From: Dictyostelium discoideum
Lineage: Eukaryota
Direction of reading: 5' to 3'
NCBI GenBank assembly: GCA_000004695.1
Contig: CM000155.2
Span: 3,200,001 to 3,264,000 of the forward strand
Length of the DNA stretch: 64,000 nt
The notes beneath the pieces were generated by a model. The model was not told the DNA's origin, made no database searches, and saw nothing but the letters and a program-made list of their open reading frames with translations. Position 1 is the stretch's first letter, and every line of letters starts with the position of its first letter. Position numbers and translations under genes: made by a program. Of the stretch, positions 6,067 through 58,958 are shown in pieces.

Positions 6067-7129
6067 TTTTTTATTTTTAATTTTTTTATTTTATTTATTT
6101 AAATTTTTTGTTTTAAAAGTTATTTAATTTATTTTTGAGAATGAAAAAAAAAAAAAAAAGTTTTAAAGTATTTATATTTTTTTTTTTTAAGTCTATTATT
6201 TTTATTTATTTTTTTTTTTAACCCATGGTTTAGATCTTTGTTCAAGTCAACACCAACACAGGTGTCAAAATGGAGTGTTATCTTTCACTCATTGCATTTT
6301 TTAGGGTTTGTGTTTTAATTGGTGAAAGTGTTAATCTTTAAAATAAAAAAAAAAAAAAAAGAAAAAAAAATTTAAAAAACTGATTATCGAAAAAAATAAA
6401 AATATCTTCAAAACACCAAAAAAAAAAAAAAAAAATATATAATTTATTTGATAATAGATTTAAAATAATAAATAATTAAAATAAAATTTTAATATATTTT
6501 AGTTGAAAATAATTAGAGTATCACAAAGATTTTTTTTTTTATTTTTTAAATATTGGTTCATTTGAAAAAGGATTAATACAAATTAAATTTTTGATGACTT
6601 TCTCTTAAATTTTTGAAAAAAAAAAAAAAAAAAAAAAAAAATTTATTTATAGTTTATTTATTATTTTTTTTTAAAAAAAATTAAATATAAATGATTTGCA
6701 ACACTTTTATATTAGATATAAACTTAAGTTTTTTATTATTATTATTTTTTTTTAACACTTTTCAATCCTTTTTTTTTTTAATTTCCTTTTTTTTTTTTTT
6801 TTTTTTTTTCCAAAATTCAAAAATTCAAACCCTAGGTATAATTATTTGTTATATAATTATTAAAAATATTTTTATAAAATATATATTTTTAATAATTATA
6901 TAACAAATAATTAGATTAATTTTAGTTCAAACGATGAATCAACAATACTTCAAAAAGAATTAAATTACCAGATTATTTTTGATTGAAATTTATAAATCCT
7001 TTTTTGAAGTGTTTAGTGTTTGGAATATAAACAATCAAATAAAGATTTATAATTTGAATATTCAATTATTTGTTAATTTAATTCTTTTTTTGAAATATTG
7101 TTGAGTCATCATTTCATCACCTCTACTAA

Positions 7130-7163
<34 letters not shown>

Positions 7164-7646
7164 AATAATATATAGTAATAGTTCAACCTCTATCAGCTAC
7201 TAAGGTAATCTTTTCGATTCATCTCAACCAACAACACAATCAATCATCCAAACGTCTTCTTCACTGATAAACTTTGTGTACCTGGTTTATGATTAGGCCA
7301 AACTCAACAACTCACTTCAAATAATCAATAATATTGATACTGGTGCTAACATGATTCATTAGTAGAATGCAATGTTGTGGGTTTCAATGTTCATCATGGC
7401 AGTGGAACTTTACAAACCCATATTCATTTAAATCATTTTTAAAAAAAATATAAAAAATAAATAATAAATAATAACTCACCTATTTACTACTAGTTTATTA
7501 TTGAGAAAAAATATAAAAAAAGGAAATTATATTATAATTACAAATAATTACGATAAATATTTAAATACTAAAAATAATTTTTGATTAAAAATAAAAAAAA
7601 AAAAAAAAAAACAAAAGGTAATTTCGATTTTATTGGACATATCAGT

Positions 7647-8091
7647 GGATAATTGAATTAATTATAATTAACTCAGAATATTTTAAAAAAGATCGAGTTA
7701 TCCCGGAATTTTTTTTTTTATTTTCTTTATTTCTCTATTCCGTTAAGACCTATCGTAGAATTAAATTTGGTTGTATTTATAGAGAAATAAAGAAAATATA
7801 AAAAAAAATGAACTTCGAAAAAAAAAAAGGAACTTCAAAAAAAAAAAACTACATATAAAAAATAAATGTATTTGAGACCCGGTATTTTTGATTTTTTTTT
7901 GTCAATCATACTATTTATTTTATTTATTTATTTATTATATTTTTTATTTTAATTGTGAATAAATGAAAAAAATTAAAAAAAAAAAAATAATATGGCCAAT
8001 GAAAAATTTTTCCCGAAAAAATTGATCTTTTCCGGGATAACTCGATCTTTTTCAAAATAACTTTTTTTGTTCAGAATTAATTCAATTATTC
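7647..8091. mobile_element. ~445-bp foldback/MITE-like element bounded by ~60-bp terminal inverted repeats with internal subterminal hairpins
   Basis: Left end ggataattgaattaatt...gatcgagttatcccgg (7647..7706) and right end ccgggataactcgatc...aattaattcaattattc (8032..8091) are reverse complements: a 16-bp block and a 17-bp block are perfect. Internal hairpin ttttctttatttctctat/atagagaaataaagaaaa (7724..7800). No ORF inside. Confidence 0.5.
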
Positions 8092-8861
8092 ACAGAAAGG
8101 TCCTTTACCAATAATTTTTATTCTTTTTATTTAAATATTTTAATGGTGGATGTTGTGGCTCAAATACAAATATAATTAAACTTGACATCAAAATTAGTCG
8201 TCTTCATCATCATATATGTTGTTAATTTACTCAAATCAAGAAATAAAATAATTATTTTTTATTATTTTTATTTTAAAGATATTAATCAATATTTAATTTC
8301 TTTTTTTATTTGGGTTTTTTTTTTACTTTTTATTTTATTTTATTTATTTTTTAAAGATCTAATTTTTTTTTTTTTTTTTTTTTTCGTTAACGAATAATCA
8401 AAAAAAAAAAAAAAATTAATTTATTATAAAATAAAAATAAAAAAATTAAAAAAATATAAATTTCCATCATTAAAAAACAAAATCTGTGTTTAAATTAATT
8501 TTAAAAATTTTATTTTTTTTTTTAATAAAATTAAATAACTATAAATATAAAATTTTTAATTCAAATTTTCACAAAAAAAAAAAAAAATAATAAATAAATA
8601 TATAATAATCAAATAAATAAAATGACAGAAGTAAGGAAATATCTTGTTAGAAAGGTACCTACAAACAAATCTATTCAGACAAGACAAATGCCAGATAGTG
8701 ATTACAGTTCTCCAGCATTTTATTTATCAGAGGGTTACCCATGTAAAGAGTGGCTTAGAGATAGATTCTACACAGTATTAGTTATAGAATTAAGAGGATT
8801 GAATTATCAAAGAACTCATTTGTCAAAATTCGCAAAAGAGTGTTTGTTAACAAGCAATCAA

Positions 8862-9118
8862 CGATGCATATGAACTACACCCAATCCCAGCATTAGCACC
8901 ATTCATACAGAACTGCATCTGGTTCAGCTCTGAGTTCTATGAAGTTTAATGGGTAAAGACTATCTTCAGTAACTAATTTAACGACGTGAAGTTTTAAAAA
9001 ATTTGGACGATGTATACGAACTACACCCAATCATGTCATTAAATTAATTACTTAAGAGAGTCTTTACCCATTTAACTTCATTAAACTCAGAGCTGAACCA
9101 GATGCAGCACCAGCTGTA
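8862..9118. repeat. Compound repeat: a 25-bp direct repeat (8862..8886 and 9019..9043), each followed by the same ~50-bp segment in opposite orientation (8911..8961 vs 9070..9118)
   Basis: cgatgcatatgaactacacccaatc / cgatgtatacgaactacacccaatc. gaactgcatctggttcagctctgag...tttaatgggtaaagact versus its reverse complement agtctttacccatttaac...ctcagagctgaaccagatgcag. The surrounding 8620..9213 is GC-richer than normal for this genome. Confidence 0.7.
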
Positions 9119-9378
9119 GAACCAGCTGAAGATGACGGTGGTGCCATCAACGAAGCAGATGACTTTAATGAAGATGATGGTGCCAAAGACATCATCGAAC
9201 AACTTCACAATTAAATACAATAAATAAAAAGTTTGTCTTCAAGAAATTAAATTTTTAAATTTTTAATTCTTTATTTTTGTTTTTTTTTTTTTTTAAAAAA
9301 TTAAATCATTTAAAATTAAAAGAAAAAAAAAATTGATTATTAAACAATTATATGTTTGTTTTTTATTTTTTATTTTTT

Positions 9379-10400
9379 TTATTTTACATTATTAACTAAA
9401 GAACCTAATTCTTCAATTTCACATTTGATAACATCACCACTCTTTAAAAAGATTGGATTAGGTTTTCTAATGAAACCAACACCTGAAGGGGTACCAGTGA
9501 AAATGATATCACCAGGATTTAAAGTGAATAATTTTGAAAGATAAGAAACTACAGTTTGAATATTGAAAATGAATTCTTTGGTTGTAGAATTTTGAACTAC
9601 TTGACCATTGAGAGTACATTTGATTGAGAGATTATTCGGGTCGAAATAAGTATCATCAGATAATGCAGCGACTTCAGGATTGATAACTATTGATGGACCA
9701 ATTGGGGCGAATGTATCAAAAGTCTTACCAAGTAACCATTGTGAGTTATTCTTACGTAGTTGCCAATCTCTAGCGGATACATCATTACCAACGGTATAGC
9801 CTGCAACATATTGTAATGCATCAGATTCTGATACGTTCTTTGCTTGTTTACCAATCACCACCACTAATTCAACCTCATAGTCTACTTCATCACTTTCGAC
9901 TGGTTTAATGATTGAGTCGTTTGGACCACAAATTGCATTGTCAAACTTTGAGAATACAATTGGTTCTTTCGGAATTGCCATCTTTGCTTCATTTGCATGC
10001 TCTTTATAATTTAAACCAATACAAATAATCTTACCTGGTTCAATTGGTGCTTTAATTTTACAATTTTCAATTGGTATTCTTCTATTATTAATATTATTAA
10101 TTACCTAAATAATAAAAATAATAATAATAATTATAAATGTTAATAAAATAAAATAAAAAATAAAAAAAAAAAAAGAAAAGAATTAATAATTTTGACATAG
10201 GTTCATACATTTATAACTTTTGACCATTTATCAGTTGAATTTAAAGATAAAAATGAACGCATATCATTTGGTATGCTTTTATCAGCTGAACATAAATCTA
10301 TAATACTATTTTCTAATAATGCACCTAACCTTTTACTTTGTTCACCAACATTTGGTATATAAGTGACTAATTTAATTAATCCAAAATTTGCTCTATTCAT
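9379..10400 (-). CDS. Fumarylacetoacetate hydrolase (FAH) domain protein, FAHD1/2-like, 2 exons
   Basis: Exons approx 10400..10209 and 10104..9379 (donor GTATGA, acceptor TTTAG). Product MNRANFGLIKLVTYIPNVGEQSKRLG...KWSKVIN|VINNINNRRIPIENCKIKAPIEPGKIICIGLNYKEHANEAKMAIPKEPIVFSKF...GTPSGVGFIRKPNPIFLKSGDVIKCEIEELG. The KIICIGLNYKEHA segment matches the FAHD consensus KIVCVGRNYADHA. Confidence 0.8.
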
Positions 10401-15376: not shown

Positions 15377-19117
<3,741 letters not shown>

Positions 19118-34982: not shown

Positions 34983-35026
34983 TTTGTAGCCAAATTGATG
35001 TAAATTTTTAAAATTTCATCAAAAAT

Positions 35027-35099
35027 GCCTGGATGGCTCAGTAGGCAGAGCGAGCGGCTGTTAACCGCTAGGTCCATGGTTCGATCCCATGTCTAGGCG
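35027..35099 (+). tRNA. tRNA-Asn (anticodon GUU)
   Basis: Cloverleaf folded by hand. Acceptor stem GCCTGGA/TCTAGGC (one G-U pair). D-stem GCTC/GAGC. Anticodon stem AGCGG/CCGCT with loop CTGTTAA, giving GTT at positions 34-36. T-stem CATGG/CCATG with loop TTCGATC. Discriminator G. Total 73 nt. Confidence 0.9.
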
Positions 35100-35130
35100 A
35101 TACTTTTCTATGAGAATAGAATTAGATCGC

Positions 35131-35365: not shown

Positions 35366-36304
35366 CTAATTATAACGATTTGCATGACCATAACCTTTAT
35401 TATGACCAGCAGTAAAAGTTTTTAAAGTATAAATATACTTTTTTAAATGTGAATGATTTGGATATTGTTGTTCAAGTTTAGTTGAATATTTGTCTACTTT
35501 AATAATATATTTATTTAATAGACCAACACAATATTTTAAAGCTAAGTCAATTGAACCAAGTTGAATTGCTCTAACTTTAACAAAGTTTGTTAATAAAATT
35601 TCATTGATTTCCATTTTGAATGAACCACAATCATTGATCATTAAATTACAAAGTTCAAAATATTTAAAGAATTTTTTGAAATTTTTTGATTCTCTAATTT
35701 CATTCTCAACATATAAAGTTGAAGTACAAGAGGAAGCAGTAATTGTCATACCGAAATCACCATGTCTTGAATTGAAATAATCTTCAATGGAAAGTGATGA
35801 ATTTAATGATTTATATTTATTGGTTTTAATGGCACTTCTACTCCAATATTCAAAATCTCTAATTAATAAATCAACAGATTCTTTAACACCAACTCTATAG
35901 TATTCATCAAATAATCTCCAAATTTCACGACCAAATGGATCATGACTCTTACTTGATCTATCCATTAAATTATCCACATAATCCTCTTCATAATTACGTG
36001 ATTCATATATGTAATCATCTAAAATGAAAAGAAAATCCAACAATTTTGAATTTACCATATATTCATCCTTTTCACCCAATGGAAAATTCAAAGCAGCAAT
36101 TTTACCAATTTCATTCTTTTTTACATAATTCACAGCATTTTCATAGTTTTGAAAAAATTGTTTAACATATTCCATTTCTTGATTTTCAAAATCTTTATCA
36201 AATGGACTACTTTTAAAATCCCAAGGAAGAGTATACTTTGGAATTCTAATTTCTTGATCCAAAAATTGATTTTTATCCCAAGTAAATTTTATATCATAAT
36301 CCAT
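35366..36304 (-). CDS. Class I terpene synthase (microbial-type TPS), single exon, 312 aa
   Basis: Aspartate-rich motif FILDDYIYE (DDxx(x)D/E) and NSE/DTE motif NDCGSFKME (NDxxSxxxE) at the canonical spacing, about 140 residues apart. All-helical composition and size fit the Dictyostelium DdTPS family. Confidence 0.75.
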   Translation of the reverse strand: MDYDIKFTWDKNQFLDQEIRIPKYTLPWDFKSSPFDKDFENQEMEYVKQFFQNYENAVNYVKKNEIGKIAALNFPLGEKDEYMVNSKLLDFLFILDDYIYESRNYEEDYVDNLMDRSSKSHDPFGREIWRLFDEYYRVGVKESVDLLIRDFEYWSRSAIKTNKYKSLNSSLSIEDYFNSRHGDFGMTITASSCTSTLYVENEIRESKNFKKFFKYFELCNLMINDCGSFKMEINEILLTNFVKVRAIQLGSIDLALKYCVGLLNKYIIKVDKYSTKLEQQYPNHSHLKKYIYTLKTFTAGHNKGYGHANRYN

Positions 36305-36527
36305 TTTTTTAAATTTTTTTTTTTTTTTTTTTAATAATTTTTATTTATGATTCAAAATTTTGGAAATATTTGATCAATTTAAATATAAAAAAAAAATGAT
36401 AAAAAAAAAAAAAAATAATAAAAAAAAAAAAAAAATAATAATTAAAAAAAAAAATTATTCTCTTAATTTGGAAATAAAAACAGTTTGATCCCTAATTTAT
36501 TATAAAAAATTTAAAATAAACTAAAAT

Positions 36528-36696
36528 ATATTCAAACTTTTTAATATTTGTTCAACTGATGAAGATAAACTTCTTTGTTAACTACATCAGTAGAACAAAT
36601 ATTAAAAAGTTTGAATATTATTTAATTTATTTTAAATTAATATTCAAACTTTTTAATATTTGTTCAACTGATGTAGTTAACAAAGAAGATAAAATT
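36528..36696. repeat. ~170-bp compound palindrome in the TPS/P450 bidirectional promoter. Arrangement: A1(36528..36561) - B(36562..36584) - A1 inverted (36585..36618) - spacer - A2 direct (36640..36673) - B inverted (36674..36696)
   Basis: A = atattcaaactttttaatatttgttcaactgatg. B = aagataaacttctttgttaacta. The inverted copies have 1-2 mismatches. Lies between the TPS ATG (36304, minus) and the P450 ATG (36989, plus). Confidence 0.85.
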
Positions 36697-36909
36697 AATT
36701 AATTGAATGTTTTTATTTTGGAAATGGTCTTTTTATCCACGTAATAAACTGTTAATTAAAAAATAACAATCAGATTATAAAAAAAAAAAAATTATATTTT
36801 TAACAGATTTACCCTCAAAATATCAAAGGGGTTTTTTTTTTTTTAATTTTCCAAAAAAAAAAAAAAAAAAAAAAAAAACCAGTTGTGTTTTTTTAGGGCT
36901 TTATAAAAA

Positions 36910-36945
<36 letters not shown>

Positions 36946-36988
36946 TATATTAATTTTTTTTTTTTTGGAATGATATAATTTAAAGAAA

Positions 36989-38571
36989 ATGATTTTATTA
37001 ACACTTTTATATTTAATTATTTTTTATATTATAATAGATTTTATAAAAAAAAATTATAAAACAAAAAATCAATTACCATCACCATTAGGAATTGCATTAC
37101 CAATTATTGGTCATTTACATTTATTACGTACCGATCCATATAAAACATTAGCTAAAGCATCGAAAAAAACAGAACATGGTATTTTAAAATGTTGGAATGG
37201 TGAGCATTTAATGGTTGTAGTTGATAATCCATCAATAATTAAACAAATGTATGTAAATACAAATAATTTTACAGATAGACCACAAACCAAAGTATTTGAA
37301 ATCATTTCAAGAAATTATAAAAATAGTGGTTTTGCAAATGGTGAAAAATGGAAACATCTCAGAGGTTTATATGCACCAAGTTTTACAAAAATTAAATCAA
37401 GACCACATGAAAATATAATTTTAAAATATGTAAATTTTGAAATTAAATCTTTAAAAAATCATGCAATTACAAATTCAATTGTAAGTTTGACCCCCCCCCC
37501 CCTTTTTTTTATTTATTTTTAAATTTTAATTAATAAATCATTATTAACTTTTTCTTTTTTATTTTCTATTAATAATAAAATAAATAGTATAATCCATTTT
37601 TAATTGAAAATATTAATTCATTTGGTACAAAAGTTATTACAGAAATTATATTTGGTAGAGAGTTTAGTGAAAATGAAGTTTACTCATTAATTGGACCAAT
37701 GAATAAATTATTTGGTATATTGGATACACCATTTCCATCAGAGAGTATATCATTTTTAAAACCATTTTATAGAAGATCTTATAAAGAATGTGATAAACAA
37801 TGTGAAGAATTATTTAAATTGGTTGAAAAAGTTTATGATGATCATTTATTGAATCTAGACAAAGACAACCCAAAAGATGTAATGGATGTAATGATTGTTG
37901 AAACTGATTTCAAAGAAAAGGATCATGTAATTTGTATATGTTGTGATTTATTAATGGGTACAAAAGATACATTCAATACAATTGTTTTATGGTTTTTTGT
38001 ATTAATGATAAATTATCAAGATGTGCAATTGAAGGGATATCAAGAGATAATCAAGGTTTTGGAATGCACAGGTCGAGATCATGTAACAATTGAAGATATC
38101 GATAAATTACCATACATTGATGGAATTATTAAAGAAATCTCAAGAATTCATCCAGCAGGTCCTTTATCAGTACCAAGAACTGCAATCAATGATATAATGA
38201 TCAATGGTTATTTCATTCCAAAAGGTTGTCATGTTTTTCAAAATACTTATGGTGCAGTTTATAATTATATGAAAGAATCTGATGAACCTTGTAAAATGAA
38301 ACCAGAAAGATGGATTGAAAATGAAAAATTAAGAAAAGATGGTAAATTAGACCCAACTAATGATTTAGCATTGATTTCATTACCTTTTTCAAGCGGAATT
38401 AGAAATTGTCCTGGTGTTGGTTTTGCAGAGTATGAATTATTCTTATTATTTTCAAATATCATTTTAAATTTTCATTTATCAAGTCCAAATAATCTAAAAC
38501 TCAATGAAAGTGGTCATTTTGGTCTTACAATGAAACCATTTCCATTTTTAGTTGATTTAAAATTAAGATAA
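36989..38571 (+). CDS. Cytochrome P450 monooxygenase, 2 exons, about 492 aa
   Basis: Exons approx 36989..37480 and 37588..38571 (donor GTAAGT, phase 0). N-terminal membrane anchor, then the P450 Pro-rich hinge LPSPLGIALPIIGHLHLL. K-helix ExxR region EISRIHP. Heme-binding loop FSSGIRNCPGVGFAEYELF (FxxGxRxCxG). Confidence 0.85.
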
Positions 38572-38573
38572 TA

Positions 38574-38631
<58 letters not shown>

Positions 38632-38980
38632 TTTATTTTTATTTTTATTTTTATTTTTATTTTTATTTTTATTTTTATTTTTATTATTATTATCTTCTTT
38701 TTTAGTAAATATTTTTTATACAACATATTAATAAAATTAAAAATCATTTATTTTTCTTTATTTTTTTTTTTTTTTTTTTTTTATTTTTTTTTATTTGTAT
38801 ATAATATTTTAAAATCGATTTTTTGTAATTTGACATAAAAAAAAAAAAAAAAAATAAAAAAATAATAAAATTAAAAACAAAAATAAAAATAAAAACTCAC
38901 TTTCTTTTTTTTTTTATTTTAGAAATTATTATTATTTGTTTCTTTTTTAAATATAAAAAATTAAAAAAAAATTTTTAATA

Positions 38981-39230
38981 ATGTCACAAAATGAATATGA
39001 CAAAAGTAATTCACTTTTAAATATATTTTCAATAAAAAAAATAACGTTAGAGAATGAAACTCTACTAAATTCAAAGATACCATGGGAAATAATTAAGAAT
39101 GGTAATGTTATTGATTTAGGTTGTGGTAATGGATGGTTTTGTAGAGAAATGATTGAAAAAGGTGTAAACCAAATTATTGGTGTTGACATTTCTGAAAAAT
39201 TAATTAAAAAAGCAATAGAATTAAATAAAG

Positions 39231-39279
<49 letters not shown>

Positions 39280-39460
39280 AAAATTAAAATATTATGTCAC
39301 TGATTTAGATAATTTCCAACTTAATGAAACTCCTTTTAATTCATTAATTGGTTCATTTGATTTTGCATTTAGTTCATTTGTAACTCATTATCTATCAGAT
39401 TTAGAATCATATTTTAAAAAAGTTTACAATTTATTAAAATCAAATAATAATAATAATAAT

Positions 39461-39530
<70 letters not shown>

Positions 39531-39889
39531 GAGGTAGTAGTTTTATATTTTTAGCAGAACATCCAATGAGAACTTCAACAAAATGTATTGAAAATAAATT
39601 TATAAATCATAAATTTGAAGGTGATGAAAATTCAAAAATGGTTTGGCCAATTTCAGATTATAGTGAAGAAGGTAAAAGAGTAACTAATTGGGCTGGATCA
39701 AGTGGAATTATTAAATATCATTATACAATTGAAACTTATGTAAACACTTTAATTAAAGTAGGTTTTAAAATTGATTATCTAGGTGAATTAAATCTTGTAG
39801 AAAGACAATTACAATTTAGTAATTCTGGTGATATATCTATAGAAGCAAATAGACCATTTACACTATTTATTAAAGTGTCAAAAAATTAA
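38981..39889 (+). CDS. Class I SAM-dependent methyltransferase, paralog 1 (302 aa), with two in-frame poly-Asn insertions
   Basis: Motif I VIDLGCGNGWFCREMIEKGVNQIIGVDISEKLIKKA (DxGxGxG plus acidic residue at the end of beta2). About 85-90% identical to the ORF at 41196..41987 apart from the (AAT)n insertions [19 protein letters not shown] and [35 protein letters not shown]. Confidence 0.75.
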
Positions 39890-40642
39890 TAAAAAAAAAA
39901 AAAAAATAAAAAAAAAAAGTTAAAAAAGTAAATAATTTAAATTTAATAATAAATAATTAATAAAAAATAAAAATAAATGTAAATTTCATTTCATTATCAC
40001 AAAAATAAAATATATACGTTATTTTATTAATTTAAAAATTATTGTACATGTTGTGCCAAGAACTTTTATTAGAAAAATAAGATGAAATAAAATAAAATGA
40101 TCTTTATTTTATAATTTTCTTTTTAAATTTTTATTATTATTAAAATTATGAATTTTAATAATAAAATATTCAATCGACATTAATAAGTCCACGTGGTTTT
40201 TACCCACGTGGGGTGAGAAAAGTTTAATTATATAAATTTTGATAATACAAGATTTTATTGCAATAATCCAATTATAGTATTTTGATAATAAATAATTAAA
40301 TTGCATTATTCGACTAATTAATTAAATTATTTTCAATTTTATTTTTTATTTAATTTTAAATACAACATATTTAAAACTGGTTATCTTTAAAAAAAAAATA
40401 AAAAAATATTAATAGTTTTATAGTGTTTTTAAAAAAAAAAAAAAAAAATTTGGACGGATAATTGTGAAAAATTTGGACGGATAATGGTGAAAAAATAAGG
40501 ATAATCAAAAAAAACCCTTTTAATACAAAGATGGAAAAAGGGAAAACATATTTTTTAAAACTATGGAATTATCATAATGTTATTATTTCATGGATAAGGA
40601 TAATCAAAAAAAACCCTTTTAATTCAAAGATGGAAAAAGGGA

Positions 40643-40681
<39 letters not shown>

Positions 40682-41195
40682 TATTAGATTGAATTTATGG
40701 ATTTGGAGATTTTATATCGATACAAATATTTGGTAATTTTAATATGAAGCATTAACGATAAGCCCGTTGTGTTGCCATTGTGTAGCAAGTATTTCATGCA
40801 TCATATAGGTTCAATACAAATTTTCTATTTATAATTAACAATACCCCTTGTAATTTCTAATCTATGAATGTTTTAGTGTGAATTTTTTTTACAAAATTTC
40901 CAAGTCACCACTAAATAATAAAAAATAATAATAACTCTCTGTAAAAAAAAAAATATTGTTTAGGTTAATTATTACATATATGTGTTATTGTTTATTTAGT
41001 ACTTGATTGTTGCAGAAAAAAAAATATTTAAATTTAAATTTTACAGATTAAAAAAACTCATCGATGAATTTAACAGGTAAAATTAATATGATCCCGTATA
41101 AAAAAATTGATTTGAGTAAAAAAATATAAATTAACTTTTTTTTTTTTTTTTTATTTCAAAAAACTATTATTTGTTTAATAAATAAATTTTTAAAA

Positions 41196-41987
41196 ATGTC
41201 ACAAAATGAATATGACAAAAATGATTCACTTTTTAATAAATTTTCAAATAAAAATTTAACTATAGAGAATGAAACTCTACTATTTTCAATGATACCATGG
41301 GAAATTGTTAAGAATGGAAATGTTATTGATTTTGGTTGTGGTAATGGATGGTTTTGTAGAGAAATGATTGAAAAAGGTGTAAACCAAATTATTGGTGTTG
41401 ACATTTCTGAAAAATTAATTAAAAAAGCAATAGAATTAAATAAAGATAATAATGAAAAATCAAAATATTATGTCACTGATTTAGATAATTTCCAACTTAA
41501 TGAAACTCCTTTTAATTCATTAATTGGTTCATTTGATTTTGCATTTAGTTCATATTTAACTCATTATTTATCAGATTTAGAATCATTTTTTAAAAAAGTT
41601 TACAATTTATTAAAATCAAATAATAATAATGGTAGTAGTTTTATATTTTTTGCAGAACATCCAATGAGAACTTCAACAAAATGTATTGAAAATAAATTTA
41701 TTAGTCATAAATTTGAAGGTGATGAAAATTCAAAAATGGTTTGGCCAATTTCAAATTATAGTGAAGAAGGTAAAAGAGTTACTAAATGGGCTGGATCAAA
41801 TGGAATTGTTAAATATCATTATACAATTGAAACTTATGTAAACACTTTAATTAAAGTAGGTTTTAAAATTGATTATATAGGTGAATTAAATCTTGTAGAA
41901 AAACAATTACAACTTTGCAATTCTGGTGATATAACAATAGAAGCAAATAGTCCATTTACACTATTTATTAAAGTAATAAAAAATTAA
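41196..41987 (+). CDS. Class I SAM-dependent methyltransferase, paralog 2 (263 aa)
   Basis: VIDFGCGNGWFCREMIEKGVNQIIGVDISEKLIKKA. Tandem duplicate of 38981..39889, lacking the poly-Asn tracts. Confidence 0.75.
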   Translation: MSQNEYDKNDSLFNKFSNKNLTIENETLLFSMIPWEIVKNGNVIDFGCGNGWFCREMIEKGVNQIIGVDISEKLIKKAIELNKDNNEKSKYYVTDLDNFQLNETPFNSLIGSFDFAFSSYLTHYLSDLESFFKKVYNLLKSNNNNGSSFIFFAEHPMRTSTKCIENKFISHKFEGDENSKMVWPISNYSEEGKRVTKWAGSNGIVKYHYTIETYVNTLIKVGFKIDYIGELNLVEKQLQLCNSGDITIEANSPFTLFIKVIKN

Positions 41988-42620
41988 TTAAAGAAAGCTT
42001 TAATTTTTTTAAAAAAGTAAATCATTTTTATATTAAAAAAAAAAAATAAAAAAAATAAAAAAAAAAAAATAAAAAAAATAAAAAAAAAAGATTTTTTAAT
42101 CTTTTTTTTTTTTTCACCTATCCTTTTTGACAAATTAACACAGCAATTTCAAAAGTTATGTTTAAAAATTAATTATTTATTTTTTTTTCCCCACCATTTT
42201 AGCTTTTTTTTGATACACACAGAATAATAAAGAAATATTAATAAAAATAAAGAAATAATAATAAAATTCTTTTTTTTTTTTTTTAAAAAATTATTATTTT
42301 ATTAATTACCAATCACGTAGTTTAGTGTGCTCGAAATTGATAAAATTATTATGTTAACAGACACGAAATATGTTCGTTTTACAATTTAAAAAAATAATGC
42401 AGTTTCTGTTTCTCGTTAAAATAATTGTGACCTAAACAAAAATTAAAAAAAAAAAAAATAAAAAAACAATTAAATAAAAAATAAAAATAAAAAATAAAAT
42501 AAAACTGGGATTCAAAAATAAAAGCAAGCTCTAATCTATTATAATTTTTAATTAAATATGTGTTAATCTAATTCTTCAATACACCTCTAAACTTTTCACT
42601 TATATAAAAAAAAAAAAAAA

Positions 42621-42905
42621 ATGACATTAATTGGTATACCACGTGGTACACCTCAAATTGAAGTTATGTTTGATGTTGATAGTAATGGTATTTTAAATGT
42701 TGCAGCTGAAGATAAAACTTCTAAAAAAGTTGAAAAAATAACTATCACCAATGACAAAGGTCGTCCCTCTCTAAAAGATATTAATAAAATGGTTGAAGAT
42801 GCAGAGAAATTTAAAGAACAAGATCAACAACAAATTTTGAAAGTTTATTTTACAAATTATTGCATAAATAAAAAAAAAAAAAAAGATTTACAAAATTTTA
42901 TTTAA
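42621..42905 (+). pseudogene. Internally deleted Hsp70 copy: the first ~6 codons (MTLIGI) fused to the C-terminal ~70 codons of the substrate-binding/lid region. About 93% nt identity to 44640..44860 of the neighbouring full gene
   Basis: atgacattaattggtata|ccacgtggtacacctcaaattgaagtt versus the full gene's 5' end atgacatcaattggtatagat and internal ggtatcccaccagcaccacgtggtacacctcaaattgaagtt. The deletion junction sits in a shared tggtat microhomology. The ORF ends after a diverged tail. Confidence 0.6.
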
Positions 42906-43241: not shown

Positions 43242-45134
43242 ATGACATCAATTGGTATAGATTTAGGAACAACATATTCTTGTGTTGGTGTTTGGTTGAA
43301 TGATCGTGTTGAAATTATTGCAAATGATCAAGGTAATAGAACTACTCCATCATATGTTGCATTCAATGATACAGAGCGTTTAATTGGTGATGCTGCAAAG
43401 AATCAAGTTGCAATGAATCCAATAAATACAGTTTTCGATGCAAAACGTTTAATTGGTAGGAAATTTTCAGATAGTGTTGTTCAAAGTGATATGAAACATT
43501 GGCCATTTAAAGTTATAACAAATAAAAACGATGATAAACCATTAATTCAAGTTGATTTCAAAGGTGAAACTAAAACATTCTCACCTGAAGAAATTTCATC
43601 AATGGTATTATCAAAAATGAAAGAAACTGCTGAATCATATTTAGGTAAACCTGTTAACAATGCAGTTATAACAGTTCCAGCTTATTTCAATGATGGACAA
43701 CGTCAAGCAACTAAGGATGCTGGTACAATTTCAAAATTAAATGTTCAACGTATCATTAATGAACCAAGTGCTGCTGCTATTGCATATGGTTTAGATAAGA
43801 AAGGTAGTAAAAGTGGTGAAATAAAAGTTTTAATATTCGATTTGGGTGGTGGTACATTTGATGTTTCATTACTATCAATTGATGATGGTGTATTTGAAGT
43901 TTTAGCAACAGCTGGTGATACTCATTTAGGTGGTGAAGATTTTGATAATCGTTTAGTGAATCACTTTGTAGATGAATTCAAACGTAAACATAAGAAGGAT
44001 ATAATGGGTAACCAACGTGCTCTTCGTCGTTTGAGAACTGCATGTGAACGTGCAAAAAGAACACTATCATCATCATCTCAAGCATCAGTTGAAATTGATT
44101 CACTTTATGATGGTATTGATTTCTATACCTCAATTACCAGAGCACGTTTTGAAGAACTTTGTTCTGACCTTTTCAATAATTGTATTGAACCAGTTGAAAA
44201 AGTTTTAAAAGATTGTAAATTGGATAAGAAATCAATAGATGAAATTGTATTAGTTGGTGGTTCAACTCGTATTCCAAAAGTTCAACAATTAATTCAAAAT
44301 CTTTTCAATGGTAAAGAATTAAATAAATCAATTAATCCTGACGAAGCCGTTGCATATGGTGCAGCAGTACAAGCTGCTATTCTATCAGGTGATAAAAGCT
44401 CAAGAATCTCTGAATTAATTTTCATTGATGTTGCACCATTATCATTGGGTATTGAAACTGTTGGTGGTGTAATGACAAACATCGTTCCAAGAAACACAAT
44501 TATCCCATGTAAAAAGACACAAACTTTTTCAACTCACACAGATAATCAAAGTGGTGTTTTAATTCAAGTTTATGAGGGTGAACGTACAATGACAAAAGAT
44601 AATAATCTATTGGGTAAATTTGAATTAACTGGTATCCCACCAGCACCACGTGGTACACCTCAAATTGAAGTTAGTTTCGATGTTGATAGTAATGGTATTT
44701 TAAATGTTACAGCTGAAGATAAAACTACTAAAAAAGTTGAAAAAATAACTATCACCAATGACAAAGGTCGTCTCTCTCTAAAAGATATTACTAAAATGGT
44801 TGAAGATGCAGAGAAATTTAAAGAACAAGATCAACAACAAAAAGAACGTATTGAATCAAAGAATAATCTTGAAAACTATATATTTTCTGTAAAAAATTCA
44901 ATTAATGACCAGAAAATCATTTCAAAACTCTCTAAATCTGATAAAAATATTATTGAATCTGAAACTGAAAGTACTCTTAAATGGTTAGAATCAAATCAAT
45001 CTGCCGAAAAGGATGAATTTAATCAAAAGATATCAGATCTTGAATCAATTGTTAACCCAATCCTTAGTAAATTCTATCAAGGTAATAATAATCCAAAACC
45101 AACCACAACTACTTTTAACCAAGATCTTGATTAA
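43242..45134 (+). CDS. Hsp70 family chaperone (630 aa, intronless, no C-terminal EEVD)
   Basis: Canonical Hsp70 signatures: [40 protein letters not shown]. Substrate-binding domain and lid present. Ends ...TTFNQDLD. HSEs upstream. Confidence 0.9.
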
Positions 45135-46807: not shown

Positions 46808-48517
46808 ATGCCATCAATGGGTATAGATTTAGGAACAACATATTCTTGTGTTGGTGTTTGCAATGAAAAAGGTCGTATTGAAATTATTGCAAATGATCAA
46901 GGTAATAGAACTACCCCATCATATGTTTCATTTAATAATAGAGAATGTTTAATTGGAGATGATGCAATGAATCAAGTTGCAATGAATCCAGTTAATACCA
47001 TTTTCGATGTAAAACGTTTATTTGGTAGAAAATATTCAGATAGTGTTGTTCAAAGTGATATGAAACTTTGGCCATTTAAAGTTATAGCAAATAAATTTGA
47101 TGATAAACCATTAATTCAAGTTGATTTCAAAGGTGAAACTAAAACATTCTCACCTGAAGAAATTTCATCAATGGTATTATCAAAAATGAAAGAAATTGTA
47201 GAACAACACTTGGGTGAACCTGTTACAGATGCAGTTATAACAGTTCCAGCTTATTTCAATGATAGACAGCGCCATGCAACCAAATATGCAGGTACAATTT
47301 CAAATTTAAATGTATTAAGAATTATTAATGAACCAACTGCTACTGCAATTGCATATGGTTTACATAGGAGAGGTATTGATGATATGAAAGTTTTAATAAT
47401 CGATCTAGGTGGTGGTACATTTGATGTTTCATTATTCAATATAGAAGATGGTATATATGAAATTTTATTATCAGGTGGTGACAATCATTTAGGTGGTGCG
47501 GATTTTAATAATCGTTTAATGAATCACTTTATAGATGAATTTAAACTTAAACATAAAAAAGATATAACCAATAATCAACGTGCTATTTTTCGTTTAAGAA
47601 CTGCATGTGAACGTGCAAAGAGAACTTTATCAATTTCATCATTAGCATCGATTGAAATTGACTCACTTTATGATGGTATTGATTTTTATTCAACAATTAC
47701 AAGAACACATTTTGAAAAACTTTGTTCTGACCTTTTCCATAGTTGTATCGATCATGTTGAAACAATTTTAAATAAATGTAAATTAGATAAAAGTTTAGTA
47801 GATGAAATTGTATTAGCTGGTGGTTCAACTCAAATTCCAAAGATACAAAGAATGTTTAAAGAATACTTCAATGGTAAAGAATTTAACAACTCGATTAACC
47901 CTGATGAAGTTGTTGCATATGGTGCAGCAGTACAATCTGGAGTTATTTCAGGCAAAGGTTCAAACTTTCCTCAACTTATTTTTTTAAATGTTACACCATT
48001 ATCAATGGGTATTGAAACTGTTGGTGGAATAATGACAAATCTTGTTGAAAGAAATACTCATATTCCTATTAAAAAAACGCAAACTTTTTCAACCCAATAT
48101 GATAATCAAACCAATGTTTTAATTCAAATTTATGAAGGTGAACGTACAATGACTAAAGATAATAATCTAATTGGTACATTTGAATTAAATGGTATCCCAC
48201 CAGCACCACGTGGTGTTACCCAGATTGAAGTTTGTTTTGATGTTGATATAGATGGTATATTAACAGTTAGTGCAGAAGATAAAACCACAAAAAAAGTTCA
48301 AAAAATCACCATCTCCAATATTAATGATCATCTCTCAAAAGTAGAGATTGAAAAAATGATAGTAGATGGTGAGAAATTTAAACAACAAGATCAACAACAA
48401 AAAAAAGAACTTATTGAATCAAATTATAAAATATATTGTGGTGATGAAAACACATTAGATTTTGAAATTACTCAAAAATTGTTAGGATCAGCTCAATCTA
48501 CTGAAATGAACGAATGA
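46808..48517 (+). CDS. Divergent Hsp70 paralog (569 aa) with a truncated C-terminal lid and substitutions in conserved ATPase motifs
   Basis: [24 protein letters not shown] and [14 protein letters not shown] are conserved. However QRQATKDAG is [20 protein letters not shown] is [11 protein letters not shown], and the protein ends shortly after the beta-sandwich. Confidence 0.8.
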
Positions 48518-53626: not shown

Positions 53627-55171
53627 TTAAAGAATTGTTGGTAAAGAATCGTAACCATTTGTAGCAGGTAAAGTTTCTCTTTTCGAATAATAGGGTTCAA
53701 GTACTACATCTTTAGGGAAATTTCTGAGACGTGGTTCACCTGTTGATACATCGATAGTGAGTTGAAGTATTTTTGTAAATTGAGGACATTCTGAAAGAAA
53801 ATCTGGAAGGGTTTTCTTTGCACCAGCAGTATCATCAGCCTTTACTAAATAATGACGAATACGTTTTTCAGGATCGGGATCATCTACTTTATAGCCAACT
53901 GCGAAATGGCCAGCATGACGTTCACTGAAACGAATTAAAAAGGTGCCTTGCTCTTCATTACGAAGGGCTTCTTCGACACTTTGACGAGAAATGAAACCAT
54001 AGATGAGACCCGATTGCCACATGGAGCAAACGTGACGTTGATAACGTAGTTTTTGTAAACCTTTACCAAACCAAATCCAAAATGAATCAAAACTAGATTG
54101 AGGGATCATTGGTTTACTTCCGAAAAATTGATGATGAATGTACATGAGTTCGTGACGTGATAGGTAACGAGTTGGTTTCATAAAGTCTTGACGAGTTGCA
54201 CGCAAGAAATGTCTTTGAAGTTTATTGGCATAGGAAGCCCAAGGTATTTCATTGTTATTTCCAAAGGAATCTTTCTTTAGGAGAGTACCATCTGATTCTT
54301 CATATTGACATTCATTGGTGATAACGATGAATGGTGAGGTTGGTGGTGATTCAATGTTTACAGCGGTACCACCAACCACTTGAACTTGCATTCCAAATTT
54401 GAGGGTTACTGGATTCTTTCTGGTACCATTTAAAAATTTGAGATGATATTTTGCCAAACGATTGGTTTCATCCATTGATACCACCTCTGTTTCAATGGTT
54501 TTTGGAGATGAAGAAGTCTTTGAGCCTTGTTGATTCTCAACGATCATTGTTGCTCTAACTTTACCGATCATTTGTAACTCTGTACGAGTGCCACAAAGTA
54601 ATTGAACGACTACTGGATCATCTTCCAATGGTTTACACTTTGTAATTACCATTGGGAATGGTTGTTCAATCACTACCAAAGCAGCGATAGTTGGTGGTGG
54701 ATTTTGTGGACGAACTAAAAGTTGTAACTCTTCATGATACAATTCCAATTGAATACTTTGAATGGTGAGTTCATGTAAAAGGAAGATAACATTTCTAATC
54801 TCTGGTGGTGATAAAACAAAGGTTTGGTCAATTTGTTGAAGTGAGGTGATCTCTGCATCAATTTGTTTTTTCAATGTATTTTGTTCATTATCCAACATTT
54901 GGAATGTCTCTTTTTGTGGGTGTGCCAACACTTGTTTTTGTACAATTTTCATCTTATCCAATTGTTCCTTTTGAGCCAAATGTAACTTTAAACATTCATT
55001 AATGATTTGTTGATGTGGTTGTAATACATTTCCATATGGTGTATTTATTAAAAGATGATCTGGTAATGGCAAATTATTATTATTACAATGTTGAATTGAT
55101 GATAATATATTTGGTTCAATTATATCATCTGGTGATCCAATTCCATTTGAGCTATTACTACTATTACTACC

Positions 55172-55203
<32 letters not shown>

Positions 55204-55457
55204 TATTATTGATATGGGTTGGAATTGGATGTAAATGTTGTGGTTCAACTGGTAATTGATGTAAAATTGGTAATTCAATTTGTTGCATTTGTGGTTGTGT
55301 TGGTTGATTTAATTGATTTTGATGATTTAATTGATTTTGATTATTTAATTGATTTTGATTATTTAATTGATTTTGATTATTTAATTGATTTTGGTGATTT
55401 AATTGATTTTGATGATTTTGATGAATTTGTTGGTGTTGTTGGTGTTGTTGTTGTTGG

Positions 55458-55522
<65 letters not shown>

Positions 55523-56305
55523 TTGTTGATGATGTTGTTGTTGTTGTTGTTGTTGTTGTTGCTGTTGTTGTTGTTGTTGTTGTTGTTGTTGCTGTTGTTG
55601 CTGTTGTTGTTGTTGTTGTTGTTGTTGTTGGAATTGGAATTGTTGTTGTTGTAAATGTTGTTGTTCTAATTGTTGTTGTTGAATTTGTGCTTGTTGTGCT
55701 TGAATTTGTGCTTGTTGTTGTTGAATTTGTTGGGCCTGTTGTTGTTGAATTTGTGCTTGATCTATTTGTGGGTTGTTAACTTGTTGAATTGGTTGCAATT
55801 GTTGTTGTAATAATTGCTGTTGTTGAATTTGTGCACCATCAATAGTTTGGAAATATGGATCAATGTTAACCTTTTTTTTTTTTATTTTTTTTGTTTTATT
55901 TTGAAATTTAAAAAAAAAAAGACAAATTAATAATATGAAACAAGAATTTAATTTAAAATAGAAAAATAAAAAAAAATATCCAAGTAAAAATAAAAAAATG
56001 TTTATTAGAAAAAAAAAAAAAACTAATAAAAAAAAAAAATTAATAAAAAAAAAAAAAAAAAAAAAAGAAAAGATATTTTTTTTTTTTTTTTTCAAAAATC
56101 CATTATCATAATCAAAACCCTTTGAAAAAAAAAAATAAAAAAATAAAAAAAAATAAAATAAAATAATGGATGACACTTACAGAATTTTGTCCAATATTTT
56201 GTTGGTGTTGGGTTTGTTGACCTGTTACGTCAGTATAAATTGGGTATGAGTAAGGAATGTTTGAATTTTGTTGAACCCCAATTGCTGGTGGAGTTGCTGT
56301 ATTAA

Positions 56306-56375
<70 letters not shown>

Positions 56376-57173
56376 GGTATTATTGTTTATGTTGTTATTG
56401 GTGGATATAGGTGAAGATGCGTTAGAAAGTGGTGATGTTGCTATACCTTCAGTTTTCACTGTCACTGTTGTGGTATTTGAATTATATATTGGTTGTTGTG
56501 ATTGTGGTTGTGGTAGTTGTGGTTGGGGTTGTGGTTGTGGTTGTGGTTGTTGATTCTGTTGGTTTTGTTGATTCTGTTGTCCTGTTCCGTTACTTTTTAA
56601 TTATTAAATTATTAAAATATTAAATAAATTTGGAATTGGAATTTAAAGAAAAAAAAAAAAAAAAATTAAATAACAAATAAAAAAAATTTATTATTAAAAA
56701 AAAAAAAAAATAAAAAAAAAATAAAAATAAAAAAAAAATAAAAAAATAAAAATAATAATTATTTGAAATTGAAAATCATTTTAAACAAAAATAAATTTTA
56801 AAATTAAAATTAAATTAATTAAAAAAAATATATATGTTTATAAAAATTATTTGAAAATTATAATTTTAGTAATAAAAGTCAAATTTTATAATAATAGGGT
56901 TAATTATAATAAAAAAAAAAAATAAAAAAAAAAAAAATAAAAAAAAAAAAAAAATAAAAATTTGAAAAAACACCATATTAGTATAAGATTTTTTGATTGT
57001 TTTTTTTTGGTAGATATTTTGGGTGATAATTACTCTAAAAATGTCATTAATGACATTAAATCATCATTTGTGGTGTTGAATCCATCACTTGAAAATTCTG
57101 GTTCTTCTTGTTTTACTTCAAAAGTGTTGCTAATTGCATCTAAAGGTCTCTTTTTTGGATTGTTATTGCTCAT
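53627..57173 (-). CDS. dstC: STAT family transcription factor (Gln-rich N-terminus, coiled-coil, DNA-binding domain, SH2, C-terminal Tyr). The 3-exon model gives 931 aa, which fits Dictyostelium STATc
   Basis: Exon 3 (55870..53627; acceptor AG|GTTAACATTGATCC) contains the SH2 domain [43 protein letters not shown] and the tail ...[11 protein letters not shown]. Exon 2 (56592..56181; donor GTAAGT) has no in-frame ATG. The only upstream minus-strand ATG whose donor phase fits the phase-2 acceptor at 56593 is the exon 57173..57034, [46 protein letters not shown], with donor GTAATT. The dstC symbol rests on recalled length (931 aa) and a Tyr near position 922. It is not verified. Confidence 0.6.
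55430..55640 (-). repeat. (CAA)n/(CAG)n coding microsatellite encoding a run of about 70 Gln in the STAT protein
   Basis: Plus strand shows (TTG)n with occasional CTG. Confidence 0.9.
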
Positions 57174-57477
57174 TTTGATTGGTGATGATAATTATTATTA
57201 TATAGTATTGATATTACTATAATTTTAAAAGTAGTAATTATGTTTATTTCTTAATATTAGTATTGATAAATAATGTTTGTTGTGAAATATGGTTTTTTTT
57301 TTGATTGAATATCGTAATAATTATTTTGAATTATTTTAAATTATTATTATTTTTTTTATTAAAAAAAAAAATTATTATTATTTTTTGAAAATGTACAAAG
57401 TGAATATCTCTAGATGTTTTTTTTTTTTTTTATTATAAATTTTGATTATCGTAATAGCTTATTATTATGGTGGGGGT

Positions 57478-57523
<46 letters not shown>

Positions 57524-58958
57524 ATTGTAAATATGTTTATTATTAGTGTGGTGGTGGTGTGTGAGTGCGTTTATTTTTTATTTTTTAATTTTTTTTAATT
57601 TTTTTTTTTTTTATTGGACTGTATAGAATTTAAAAGTATACAATATGCCCTGATAACTATTTTTAATTTTATTAATAAAAGTATAACATGCCCTGATAAT
57701 AATTATTATTTTTAAAAAAAAAAAAAAAAAAAAAAAGTTTTTTGAAAAAAAAAAAAAATTAAATTAAATTTTTTTTTATTTTTTTTTATTTATTTATTTT
57801 TTTTTATTTTTTTTTATTTTTTTTATTTTTTTTTTTGCTTTGTTAACGTGCAGAGGTTGTGAGAGTGTGATTTGAAAATTACTTTAACTGTAAATTTTTT
57901 TTTTGAGTTGCCAAAATAATAAAAAAAAAAAATAAAAAAAAAAAGATATCCAAAAAAAAAAAAGTTGTCCAAAAAAAAAATAAAAAAGTTGTCAAAAAAA
58001 AAAAATAAAAAAAAATAATTAAAATAATTTTCTAAACTTACAGAAAAAAAAAAAAAATATATAAAAATATGGAACTAATGGTTCAAATTCTGGAAAAAAT
58101 GAGAAATGAATTAATAAATGTATTATAGTTTTTTTTTTTTTTTTTCCTTTTTTTTTTTTTTTTTTTTTTTTAAATTATTCTTTATTTTATCCACTTCAAA
58201 ATTTTTCATACAATATTATTACAAACTAAAAAAACTAATAGGTTTTGATGGTTTGTTTCTGATGGTGATGAAATTATTTTGATTCTCGAACCAAAAATAT
58301 AGGCTAGGATGTGGAAAAATAATTTAAAAATTTTTTAAAAAAAAAAATATATAAGAAAAAAAAAAAAATTTTTAAACATAAAAAAAAAATAAAAAAATAA
58401 TAAAAAAAGTAATAATAATAAAAAAAAAAAAAAATTAAATAAATAAAAAACAAATAAAAAAAAAATATTAAATAAATAAATAAATTTTTTTTATTTCCAA
58501 TTTATTTTTTTATTTTTTTTATTTTTTTTATTTTTTATTTTTTTTTTCACCATTCAAAAAAAGATGGGGGTAAATAGAGAGACTTACAAAAATATGAAAA
58601 GAATGATGATAATTTTATGATGTTTTATAAATTAATAAGAAAATAAATAATTAAATAAATAAATAAATATATTTTAAAAAATAAAATAAAATATAAAAAA
58701 ATAAAATAAAATAAAACAAAAAAAGATATCTACAATGATATATGGTGTGAAATTAAATAATTATAATATAGACAAAGTATACAATAACGCTTTAAAATTT
58801 ATTTACAAATAAATAATATATAATATATAATTAAAATTAGAAAATTTAAAAAAAAATTTTGAGAAAAATAAAAAAAAAATAAAAAAATGGTGCTTTTGAA
58901 AGAGAGGGGGGTTTTTAAATGTGTATATATATGATAAAAATCATCTGAAGTGTTTTGA

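Follow-up and report, generated by a model that had tools for sequence, protein, structure and literature searches.

Genes at the locus

We analysed a 64,000-nucleotide (nt) stretch of Dictyostelium discoideum AX4 chromosome 6 (NCBI GenBank assembly GCA_000004695.1, contig CM000155.2, positions 3,200,001 to 3,264,000, forward strand). In this stretch, hereafter the window, a terpene synthase, a cytochrome P450 and two S-adenosylmethionine (SAM)-dependent methyltransferases (MT1 and MT2) lie side by side. A preliminary description of this DNA had read the four genes as a candidate terpenoid cluster in which the duplicated methyltransferases supply a potentially undescribed tailoring step. In all likelihood the locus is instead a known two-gene terpenoid cluster that stands beside an unrelated, older block of methyltransferase and Hsp70 genes. 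Open reading frames (ORFs), Pfam and motifs place all four genes where they had been described and in the same families; the intron of the P450 had gone unmentioned. The four-gene observation is far above chance expectation. The window is strongly AT-rich (GC content of 13-36% per kb), and the features in question are the following, with the paralogue types 'a' and 'b' defined further below.

35366..36304, minus strand: DdTPS8 (gene tps8, Q54BE5), single exon, 312 amino acids (aa); exact match to TPS8_DICDI, a class I microbial-type sesquiterpene synthase
36305..36988, no strand: intergenic region between the divergent DdTPS8 and CYP521A1, 684 nt, with a repeat block at 36508-36707
36989..37480, plus strand: CYP521A1 exon 1 (aa 1-164), with an N-terminal hydrophobic anchor and a PSPLG hinge; Pfam p450, 52.7 bits
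37481..37587, plus strand: CYP521A1 intron, 107 nt, phase 0, GTAAGT...AATAG, read from the sequence; splicing restores a 491-aa ORF
37588..38571, plus strand: CYP521A1 exon 2 (aa 165-491), with GTKDT, EISR, PERW and the heme loop; Pfam p450 (PF00067), 165.4 bits
38981..39889, plus strand: MT1, class I SAM-dependent methyltransferase, 302 aa, 'a'-type paralogue, intact ORF with two poly-Asn insertions
41196..41987, plus strand: MT2 (DDB_G0293670, staK), class I SAM-dependent methyltransferase, 263 aa, exact match to Q54BE2

The terpene synthase is recognised by Pfam PF19086 (Terpene_syn_C_2) with 48.1 bits against a cut-off of 23.7 over aa 87-264. It carries the elements expected for a trinuclear Mg2+ cluster, namely the Asp-rich motif DDYIYE (aa 96-101, window 36002-36019) and the NSE/DTE motif NDCGSFKME (aa 224-232, window 35609-35635), and in addition a C-terminal RY pair (aa 310-311, window 35372-35377). 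The spliced P450 of 491 aa is identical to CYP521A1 (Q1ZXA1) in an exact-sequence look-up. Its heme-thiolate loop reads FSSGIRNCPG (aa 431-440; FxxGxRxCxG), and the K-helix EISR (aa 347-350), PERW (aa 403-406) and the I-helix GTKDT (aa 288-292) are likewise present. MT1 and MT2 both exceed the cut-offs of the Pfam families Methyltransf_11, 23, 25, 31 and 12 and share the glycine-rich motif I (VID[LF]GCGNG, aa 43-51) as well as IIGVD (aa 65-69), which supplies the acidic residue behind strand 2 of the Rossmann fold, as expected of class I SAM methyltransferases.

In their spacing the four genes resemble a cluster, with 684 nt between TPS8 and the P450, 409 nt between the P450 and MT1 and 1306 nt between MT1 and MT2. 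An exact-sequence look-up identifies the gene directly 3' of MT2 as Hsp70 (DDB_G0293674). An AX4-type assembly contains the identical six genes in the identical order, and MT1 is called there as a 302-aa gene.

The terpene synthase-P450 pair

Chen et al. (2019; eLife 8:e44352; PMC6524965) placed CYP521A1 on chromosome 6 in head-to-head orientation to DdTPS8, at a distance of 685 bp. In the window the distance between the two start codons is likewise 685 positions, so that 684 nt remain between them. Since both window proteins are identical to TPS8_DICDI and CYP521A1 and the spacing is the same, the terpene synthase-P450 half of the locus is, as judged from its sequence, this published and characterised cluster, and the divergent pair of the preliminary description thereby gains exact identities. 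The two core genes show no difference from the published cluster. On the downstream methyltransferases the paper is silent, the word 'methyltransferase' occurring zero times in it, and among the later papers searched we found none that ties a methyltransferase to discodiene or to a Dictyostelium terpene cluster.

According to the published work, DdTPS8 turns farnesyl diphosphate (FPP) into the sesquiterpene alcohol discoidol. CYP521A1, which uses the unlinked P450 reductase redB, then removes the 1-hydroxy-1-methylethyl side chain of discoidol by oxidative C-C cleavage to yield discodiene, a volatile C12 trisnorsesquiterpene of mass 162 (Chen et al., 2019). In mechanistic terms, DdTPS8 as a class I, metal-dependent enzyme ionises FPP and cyclises it to discoidol, which CYP521A1 cleaves to discodiene. 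These pathway steps come from the literature, and our own contribution to them is limited to the identity of the window sequence to both proteins. The transcripts of DdTPS8 and CYP521A1 correlate with r = 0.994, both peaking at 16 h of development and declining afterwards (Parikh/dictyExpress source; Chen et al., 2019). Wild-type cells emit unmethylated discodiene as a major peak; a tps8 insertion mutant, which culminates slowly, loses this peak and is reported to differ by it only (Chen et al., 2019).

The mass of 162 fits the loss of three carbons and the oxygen from discoidol, and discodiene should therefore be a hydrocarbon that has neither O nor N to methylate. For a tertiary alcohol such as discoidol, we know of no precedent for methylation.

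The region between DdTPS8 and CYP521A1 is presumed to be a bidirectional promoter. In its middle lies a palindromic block of ~200 nt (36508-36707), in which inverted and direct repeats alternate; the repeat arms of 61-73 nt are 88-90% complementary, and a 41-nt direct repeat has 95% identity. The intergenic regions of AX4 and D. cf. discoideum align only at their two ends, over ~150 nt on the CYP521A1 side and ~11 nt on the TPS8 side. The block has no conserved counterpart in D. cf. discoideum and was dropped as a candidate for a shared regulatory element; a small insertion or a site of hairpin formation could account for it. A scan for sigma-70 promoters and terminators gave nothing, which is irrelevant for a eukaryote.

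Expression of staK

MT2 corresponds by exact protein match to DDB_G0293670, which Forbes et al. (2022; PMC9117722) named staK, a marker of stalk and basal disc that is conserved in group 4, contains a Methyltransf_23 domain and has no assigned function. It is induced by cyclic di-GMP (c-di-GMP) with strong synergy of DIF-1. In their RNA-seq data the staK signal is confined to the stalk and amounts to 0% of its maximum up to the aggregate, at most 0.64% up to the slug, 19-35% at culmination and 100% in fruiting bodies (Forbes et al., 2022). The time course of Parikh (2010), which is the dictyExpress source also used by Chen et al., is tabulated by Kin et al. (2018; PMC6198379, supplement 5) and gives values for staK of 0, 0, 0, 0.10, 0.12, 19.6 and 63.9 from 0 to 24 h. 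In transcripts per million, staK reaches 1172 in stalk compared to 0.15 in cup, 0.25 in spore and 0 in vegetative cells (Kin et al., 2018).

At 16 h, when DdTPS8 and CYP521A1 peak, staK stands at 0.12, and it rises only at 20-24 h. Switched off at the earlier of these times and restricted to the stalk at the later ones, staK is not co-regulated with the DdTPS8-CYP521A1 pair. Judged on the published staK data, the co-expression by which the preliminary description had proposed to test a cluster of four does not extend to this methyltransferase. MT1 is not discussed in either of the two papers. In the sheet of stalk-specific genes (Kin et al., 2018) the identifiers jump from DDB_G0293662, which we place at ~25.1 kb of the window via its qPCR primers, to DDB_G0293670 with none in between. 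A literature search by gene identifier returned DDB_G0293670, DDB_G0293662 and DDB_G0293674 only, and no expression table with TPS8, CYP521A1 or MT1.

The methyltransferases in sister species

Orthologues of the methyltransferases with 69-76% identity are found in D. citrinum, D. dimigraforme and D. firmibasis. All three species share with the window the order methyltransferase, Hsp70, 111-aa gene, helicase and TRM13. The methyltransferase pair is arranged head-to-head in the three sister species, whereas it is tandem in AX4. In a neighbour-joining tree the paralogues fall into two old clades, 'a' and 'b'. The two copies of AX4 are of the 'a' type and group together, and the 'b' methyltransferase is missing from D. 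discoideum. Neither TPS8 nor CYP521A1 coding sequence occurs in the 9-10 kb upstream of the methyltransferases in the three sister species, and synteny with the window ends there. In D. firmibasis, this synteny break is an 8-kb gene-poor gap upstream of the methyltransferase pair that is filled by long simple-sequence tracts and an ORF (positions 17156-17482 of the extracted segment L002, minus strand) resembling the C-terminal end of a retrotransposon integrase.

D. dimigraforme retains a dead relic of TPS8 (JBTAPM010000021.1, segment L004, 9032-9202) on the minus strand, which is also that of TPS8. Adjoining it are two methyltransferases, 'b' in truncated and 'a' in intact form; the relic itself consists of two abutting fragments with stop codons and an internal deletion of ~550 nt. 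The first corresponds to TPS8 residues 229-260 (FKMEIN...GSINLALKYCV; blastn E 4.8e-10) and the second to residues 16-44 (D*EIRVQKYLLP*). TPS8 therefore already adjoined the methyltransferase pair in the ancestor shared by D. discoideum and D. dimigraforme. It then decayed in D. dimigraforme, where MT-a remained intact.

The ratio of nonsynonymous to synonymous substitution rates (dN/dS) between methyltransferase orthologues is 0.18 for 'a' of D. citrinum and D. dimigraforme, and 0.26 for 'a' and 0.22 for 'b' of D. citrinum and D. firmibasis. The orthologues are under purifying selection between species without functional TPS8.

The terpene pair itself has a narrow distribution. A search at the level of 90% clusters found no TPS8 relative outside D. 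discoideum sensu lato. An exhaustive HMMER search with TPS8 gave 15 matches with DpTPS6 of D. purpureum (35% identity) as the nearest outside relative, and is blind to orthologues with more than 50% identity, which collapse into the query's own cluster. DpTPS6 has been called the TPS8 orthologue in the literature; its neighbours in D. purpureum are unrelated genes with no methyltransferase, Hsp70 or P450 among them. The best relatives of CYP521A1 outside the species have 34-35% identity.

Across the related genomes the four genes are thus not gained, kept and lost together. Synteny, another check suggested in the preliminary description, holds for the methyltransferases and Hsp70, which stay together in the three sister species where the locus has no functional TPS8 or CYP521A1, and for TPS8 only as the dead relic of D. 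dimigraforme. This retention, the relic and the purifying selection indicate that the methyltransferases and the terpene pair have independent histories.

Duplication and decay around the pair

A further arrangement is seen in D. cf. discoideum (JBTAPI010000108.1, segment L006), where the order is methyltransferase pseudogene, TPS8, a spacer, CYP521A1, Hsp70 fragments, methyltransferase, Hsp70 tail fragment, methyltransferase and Hsp70. The TPS8-CYP521A1 spacer measures 2.15 kb compared to 684 nt in AX4. The third methyltransferase copy, on the far side of TPS8 (1190-1760), is a pseudogene with stops and a missing middle part that reads GYGNG in motif I. Hsp70 fragments (6826-9636) lie between CYP521A1 and the methyltransferases as well as between the two methyltransferases. 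The dN/dS of the methyltransferase duplicates is 0.69, a value based on few substitutions and compatible with relaxed constraint.

AX4 also has a C-terminal Hsp70 fragment at 42618-42794, between MT2 and Hsp70. Here, a 94-aa ORF (42618-42905, plus strand) derives from the fragment (residues ~459-520, 82% identical) and lies just before the complete Hsp70 gene (43242-45134). Another Hsp70 paralogue (73% identical) occupies 46808-48517. The region is a hot spot of segmental duplication in which methyltransferase and Hsp70 pieces are being duplicated and degraded together. Neutral segmental duplication fits better than selection for a pair of tailoring enzymes.

MT1 and MT2 share 89% protein and 94.8% DNA identity, and the AX4 pair is a recent duplicate. 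The duplication is limited to the coding sequence, from ~16 nt before the ATG to shortly past the stop codon, which implies that MT1 and staK have different promoters. MT1 contains two poly-Asn insertions, of 13 residues (~39224-39262) and 26 residues (~39462-39539), which keep the frame, lie outside the identified SAM-binding motifs and are missing from MT2 and all orthologues. The dN/dS between MT1 and MT2 is 0.77, from 41 nucleotide differences, and fits relaxed constraint or divergence after duplication. The spacer between the two genes, upstream of staK, is unique and contains a 62-nt direct repeat (40495-40556 and 40594-40655, 94% identical, 99 nt apart).

Enzyme family of the methyltransferases

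Identification of the four proteins, as the preliminary description had advised, succeeded for the terpene synthase (DdTPS8), the P450 (CYP521A1) and MT2 (staK), and the exact MT1 sequence had no match in the protein collection searched. The closest solved structure is PDB 3bkw (E 1.5e-28, query residues 28-254), followed by 3g5l; both are uncharacterised structural-genomics proteins. Further PDB matches cover only the Rossmann core and include ToxA, phosphoethanolamine N-methyltransferases, juvenile hormone acid methyltransferases and UbiG. The match to juvenile hormone acid O-methyltransferase (E about 5e-5) is no better than those to the phosphoethanolamine enzymes and UbiG. NCBIfam models applied to MT1, MT2 and two bacterial homologues gave weak hits to BioC, UbiG, ChlM and others, all far below cut-off. 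With no NCBIfam assignment and a discodiene mass of 162, we found neither a family known for this substrate class nor a methyl acceptor in the product.

Outside the dictyostelids, the nearest relatives are 243-aa methyltransferases of Enterobacter and Leclercia with 32-33% identity over 100% of the query. The neighbourhood of the Enterobacter homologue is variable and uninformative, and the gene stands alone without terpene genes. Among 40 matches in total, the 31 next-best relatives outside group-4 Dictyostelium come from Enterobacter/Leclercia or unnamed metagenomes, mostly with 31-35% identity and with one weak match at 28%; no other eukaryote is named among these 31. In this search, which was word-limited, the pattern would be compatible with an entry of the family into group-4 dictyostelids by horizontal transfer from bacteria, which could have occurred.

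Do the methyltransferases belong to the terpene pathway?

The idea of an undescribed tailoring step meets contrary evidence from staK timing, from the distribution in sister species and from product chemistry. An involvement of either methyltransferase in the terpene pathway is very unlikely. What stands of the candidate cluster of four is its two-gene core, which is characterised rather than a candidate, and the methyltransferase extension lacks support. Nor is MT2 'potentially undescribed', as it was already named in 2022.

Several observations weigh against separating the methyltransferases from the pair. The published profiling was by headspace gas chromatography-mass spectrometry (GC-MS) only, which non-volatile products would escape, and one passage of the same paper has DdTPS8 expression highest at culmination (Chen et al., 2019). 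With 19-35% of its maximum at this stage, staK overlaps partially in time, and RNA-seq reads from two methyltransferase copies that are 95% identical may be confounded. The sequence upstream of MT1 is the 409 nt that follow the CYP521A1 stop codon, and it bears no relation to the promoter of staK. In D. cf. discoideum, TPS8-CYP521A1 is flanked by methyltransferase copies on either side. The adjacency of TPS8 and the methyltransferases, as the relic shows, predates the split of D. discoideum and D. dimigraforme and is not brand new. Finally, the absence of TPS8 and CYP521A1 from the sister species refers to annotated proteomes and 10-kb flanks.

Given the headspace sampling, one methyltransferase might act on a DdTPS8-derived compound that GC-MS missed, which we regard as highly improbable. 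MT1 is the more plausible of the two, since it has a promoter other than that of staK. The substrate could in that case be an oxidised, non-volatile derivative of discoidol, or FPP itself by C-methylation. If a methyltransferase did act on such a compound, the locus would be an amoebal terpenoid cluster of three or four genes. The early adjacency of TPS8 and the methyltransferase pair gives this reading some small scope.

It is slightly less probable that both methyltransferases O-, N- or C-methylate a product or intermediate of DdTPS8 and CYP521A1, to give a methylated terpenoid that is possibly non-volatile and localised to the stalk. The short spacers of 409 and 1306 nt would suit a cluster of all four genes, as would the early position of TPS8 next to the methyltransferase pair, the flanking copies in D. 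cf. discoideum, the partial overlap at culmination and the restriction of the published profiling to volatiles. Moreover, the weak PDB matches include juvenile hormone acid O-methyltransferases, enzymes whose substrates are sesquiterpenoid acids. However, that match reflects the generic fold, and at 16 h, the time of the DdTPS8 and CYP521A1 maximum, staK is virtually unexpressed. Both methyltransferase paralogues are under purifying selection where the locus has no TPS8 or CYP521A1, and copies decay freely elsewhere, as seen in the D. cf. discoideum pseudogene and the truncated 'b' of D. dimigraforme. The chemistry is unfavourable as well, since the mass of discodiene implies no heteroatom and methylation of discoidol would lack a known precedent. 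Unmethylated discodiene is moreover a major wild-type peak and reportedly the sole one lost in the tps8 mutant.

Least probable of all is a recruitment of MT1 alone as a neofunctionalising duplicate, with MT2/staK keeping an ancestral stalk role: MT1 has an intact ORF with all SAM-binding motifs, new upstream DNA in the form of the CYP521A1 3' flank, since only coding sequence was duplicated, and an elevated dN/dS, but relaxed constraint fits the 0.77 from 41 differences equally well, the D. cf. discoideum duplicates behave alike (0.69) though an Hsp70 fragment separates them from CYP521A1, and there is no obvious methyl acceptor.

We return to a two-gene cluster beside an unrelated methyltransferase-Hsp70 block. 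Here, the methyltransferases would methylate some small molecule of stalk cells that has no relation to discodiene, which we infer because they share the fold family of bacterial small-molecule methyltransferases. MT2/staK, which responds to c-di-GMP in synergy with DIF-1, comes on exclusively in stalk and basal-disc cells at terminal differentiation. The ancestral group-4 state is two diverged paralogues, 'a' and 'b', arranged head-to-head beside Hsp70. D. discoideum lost 'b' and underwent a recent tandem duplication of the 'a' coding sequence.

With the core cluster and discodiene in print since 2019 and the name staK since 2022, the main result holds no novelty. What is new is limited to an evolutionary sketch, in which CYP521A1 now occupies the position of the lost 'b' methyltransferase beside a pre-existing TPS8; it provides a modest example, open to dating, of the assembly of a two-gene metabolic cluster in a eukaryote. 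The locus also teaches a negative lesson. In the gene-dense Dictyostelium genome, tailoring-type genes that adjoin a terpene synthase are insufficient to call a larger cluster, and here the methyltransferases part from the pair in the timing of their expression as well as in the genome comparison.

Further features of the window

A tRNA-Asn (GTT) gene at 35026-35100 on the plus strand, the sole tRNA in the 64-kb window, lies 265 nt past the 3' end of DdTPS8, between DdTPS8 and an upstream gene for a 1435-aa ComC-like protein. Over ~3 kb (55001-58000) the GC skew is strongly positive (0.38-0.62) and the AT skew negative; this stretch overlaps the 5' part of a conserved 849-aa minus-strand gene and the DNA beyond.

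Comparison with known systems

The closest known system is the DdTPS8-CYP521A1 cluster (Chen et al., 2019), which is the same locus. For the methyltransferases, the published counterpart is staK (Forbes et al., 2022; Kin et al., 2018). The head-to-head arrangement of 'a' and 'b' and the loss of 'b' in D. discoideum emerge from the present comparison and are not part of those papers. The bacterial proteins in 3bkw and 3g5l and those of Enterobacter and Leclercia resemble MT1 and MT2 over their full length, including the C-terminal substrate-side domain. They likewise have no assigned substrate, and differ in that poly-Asn insertions occur on the amoeba side only. Terpene clusters of plants, fungi and bacteria likewise place a scaffold-forming and an oxidising enzyme side by side and co-express them. 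Those clusters add tailoring enzymes, whereas here co-expression and co-inheritance unite the two-gene core alone.

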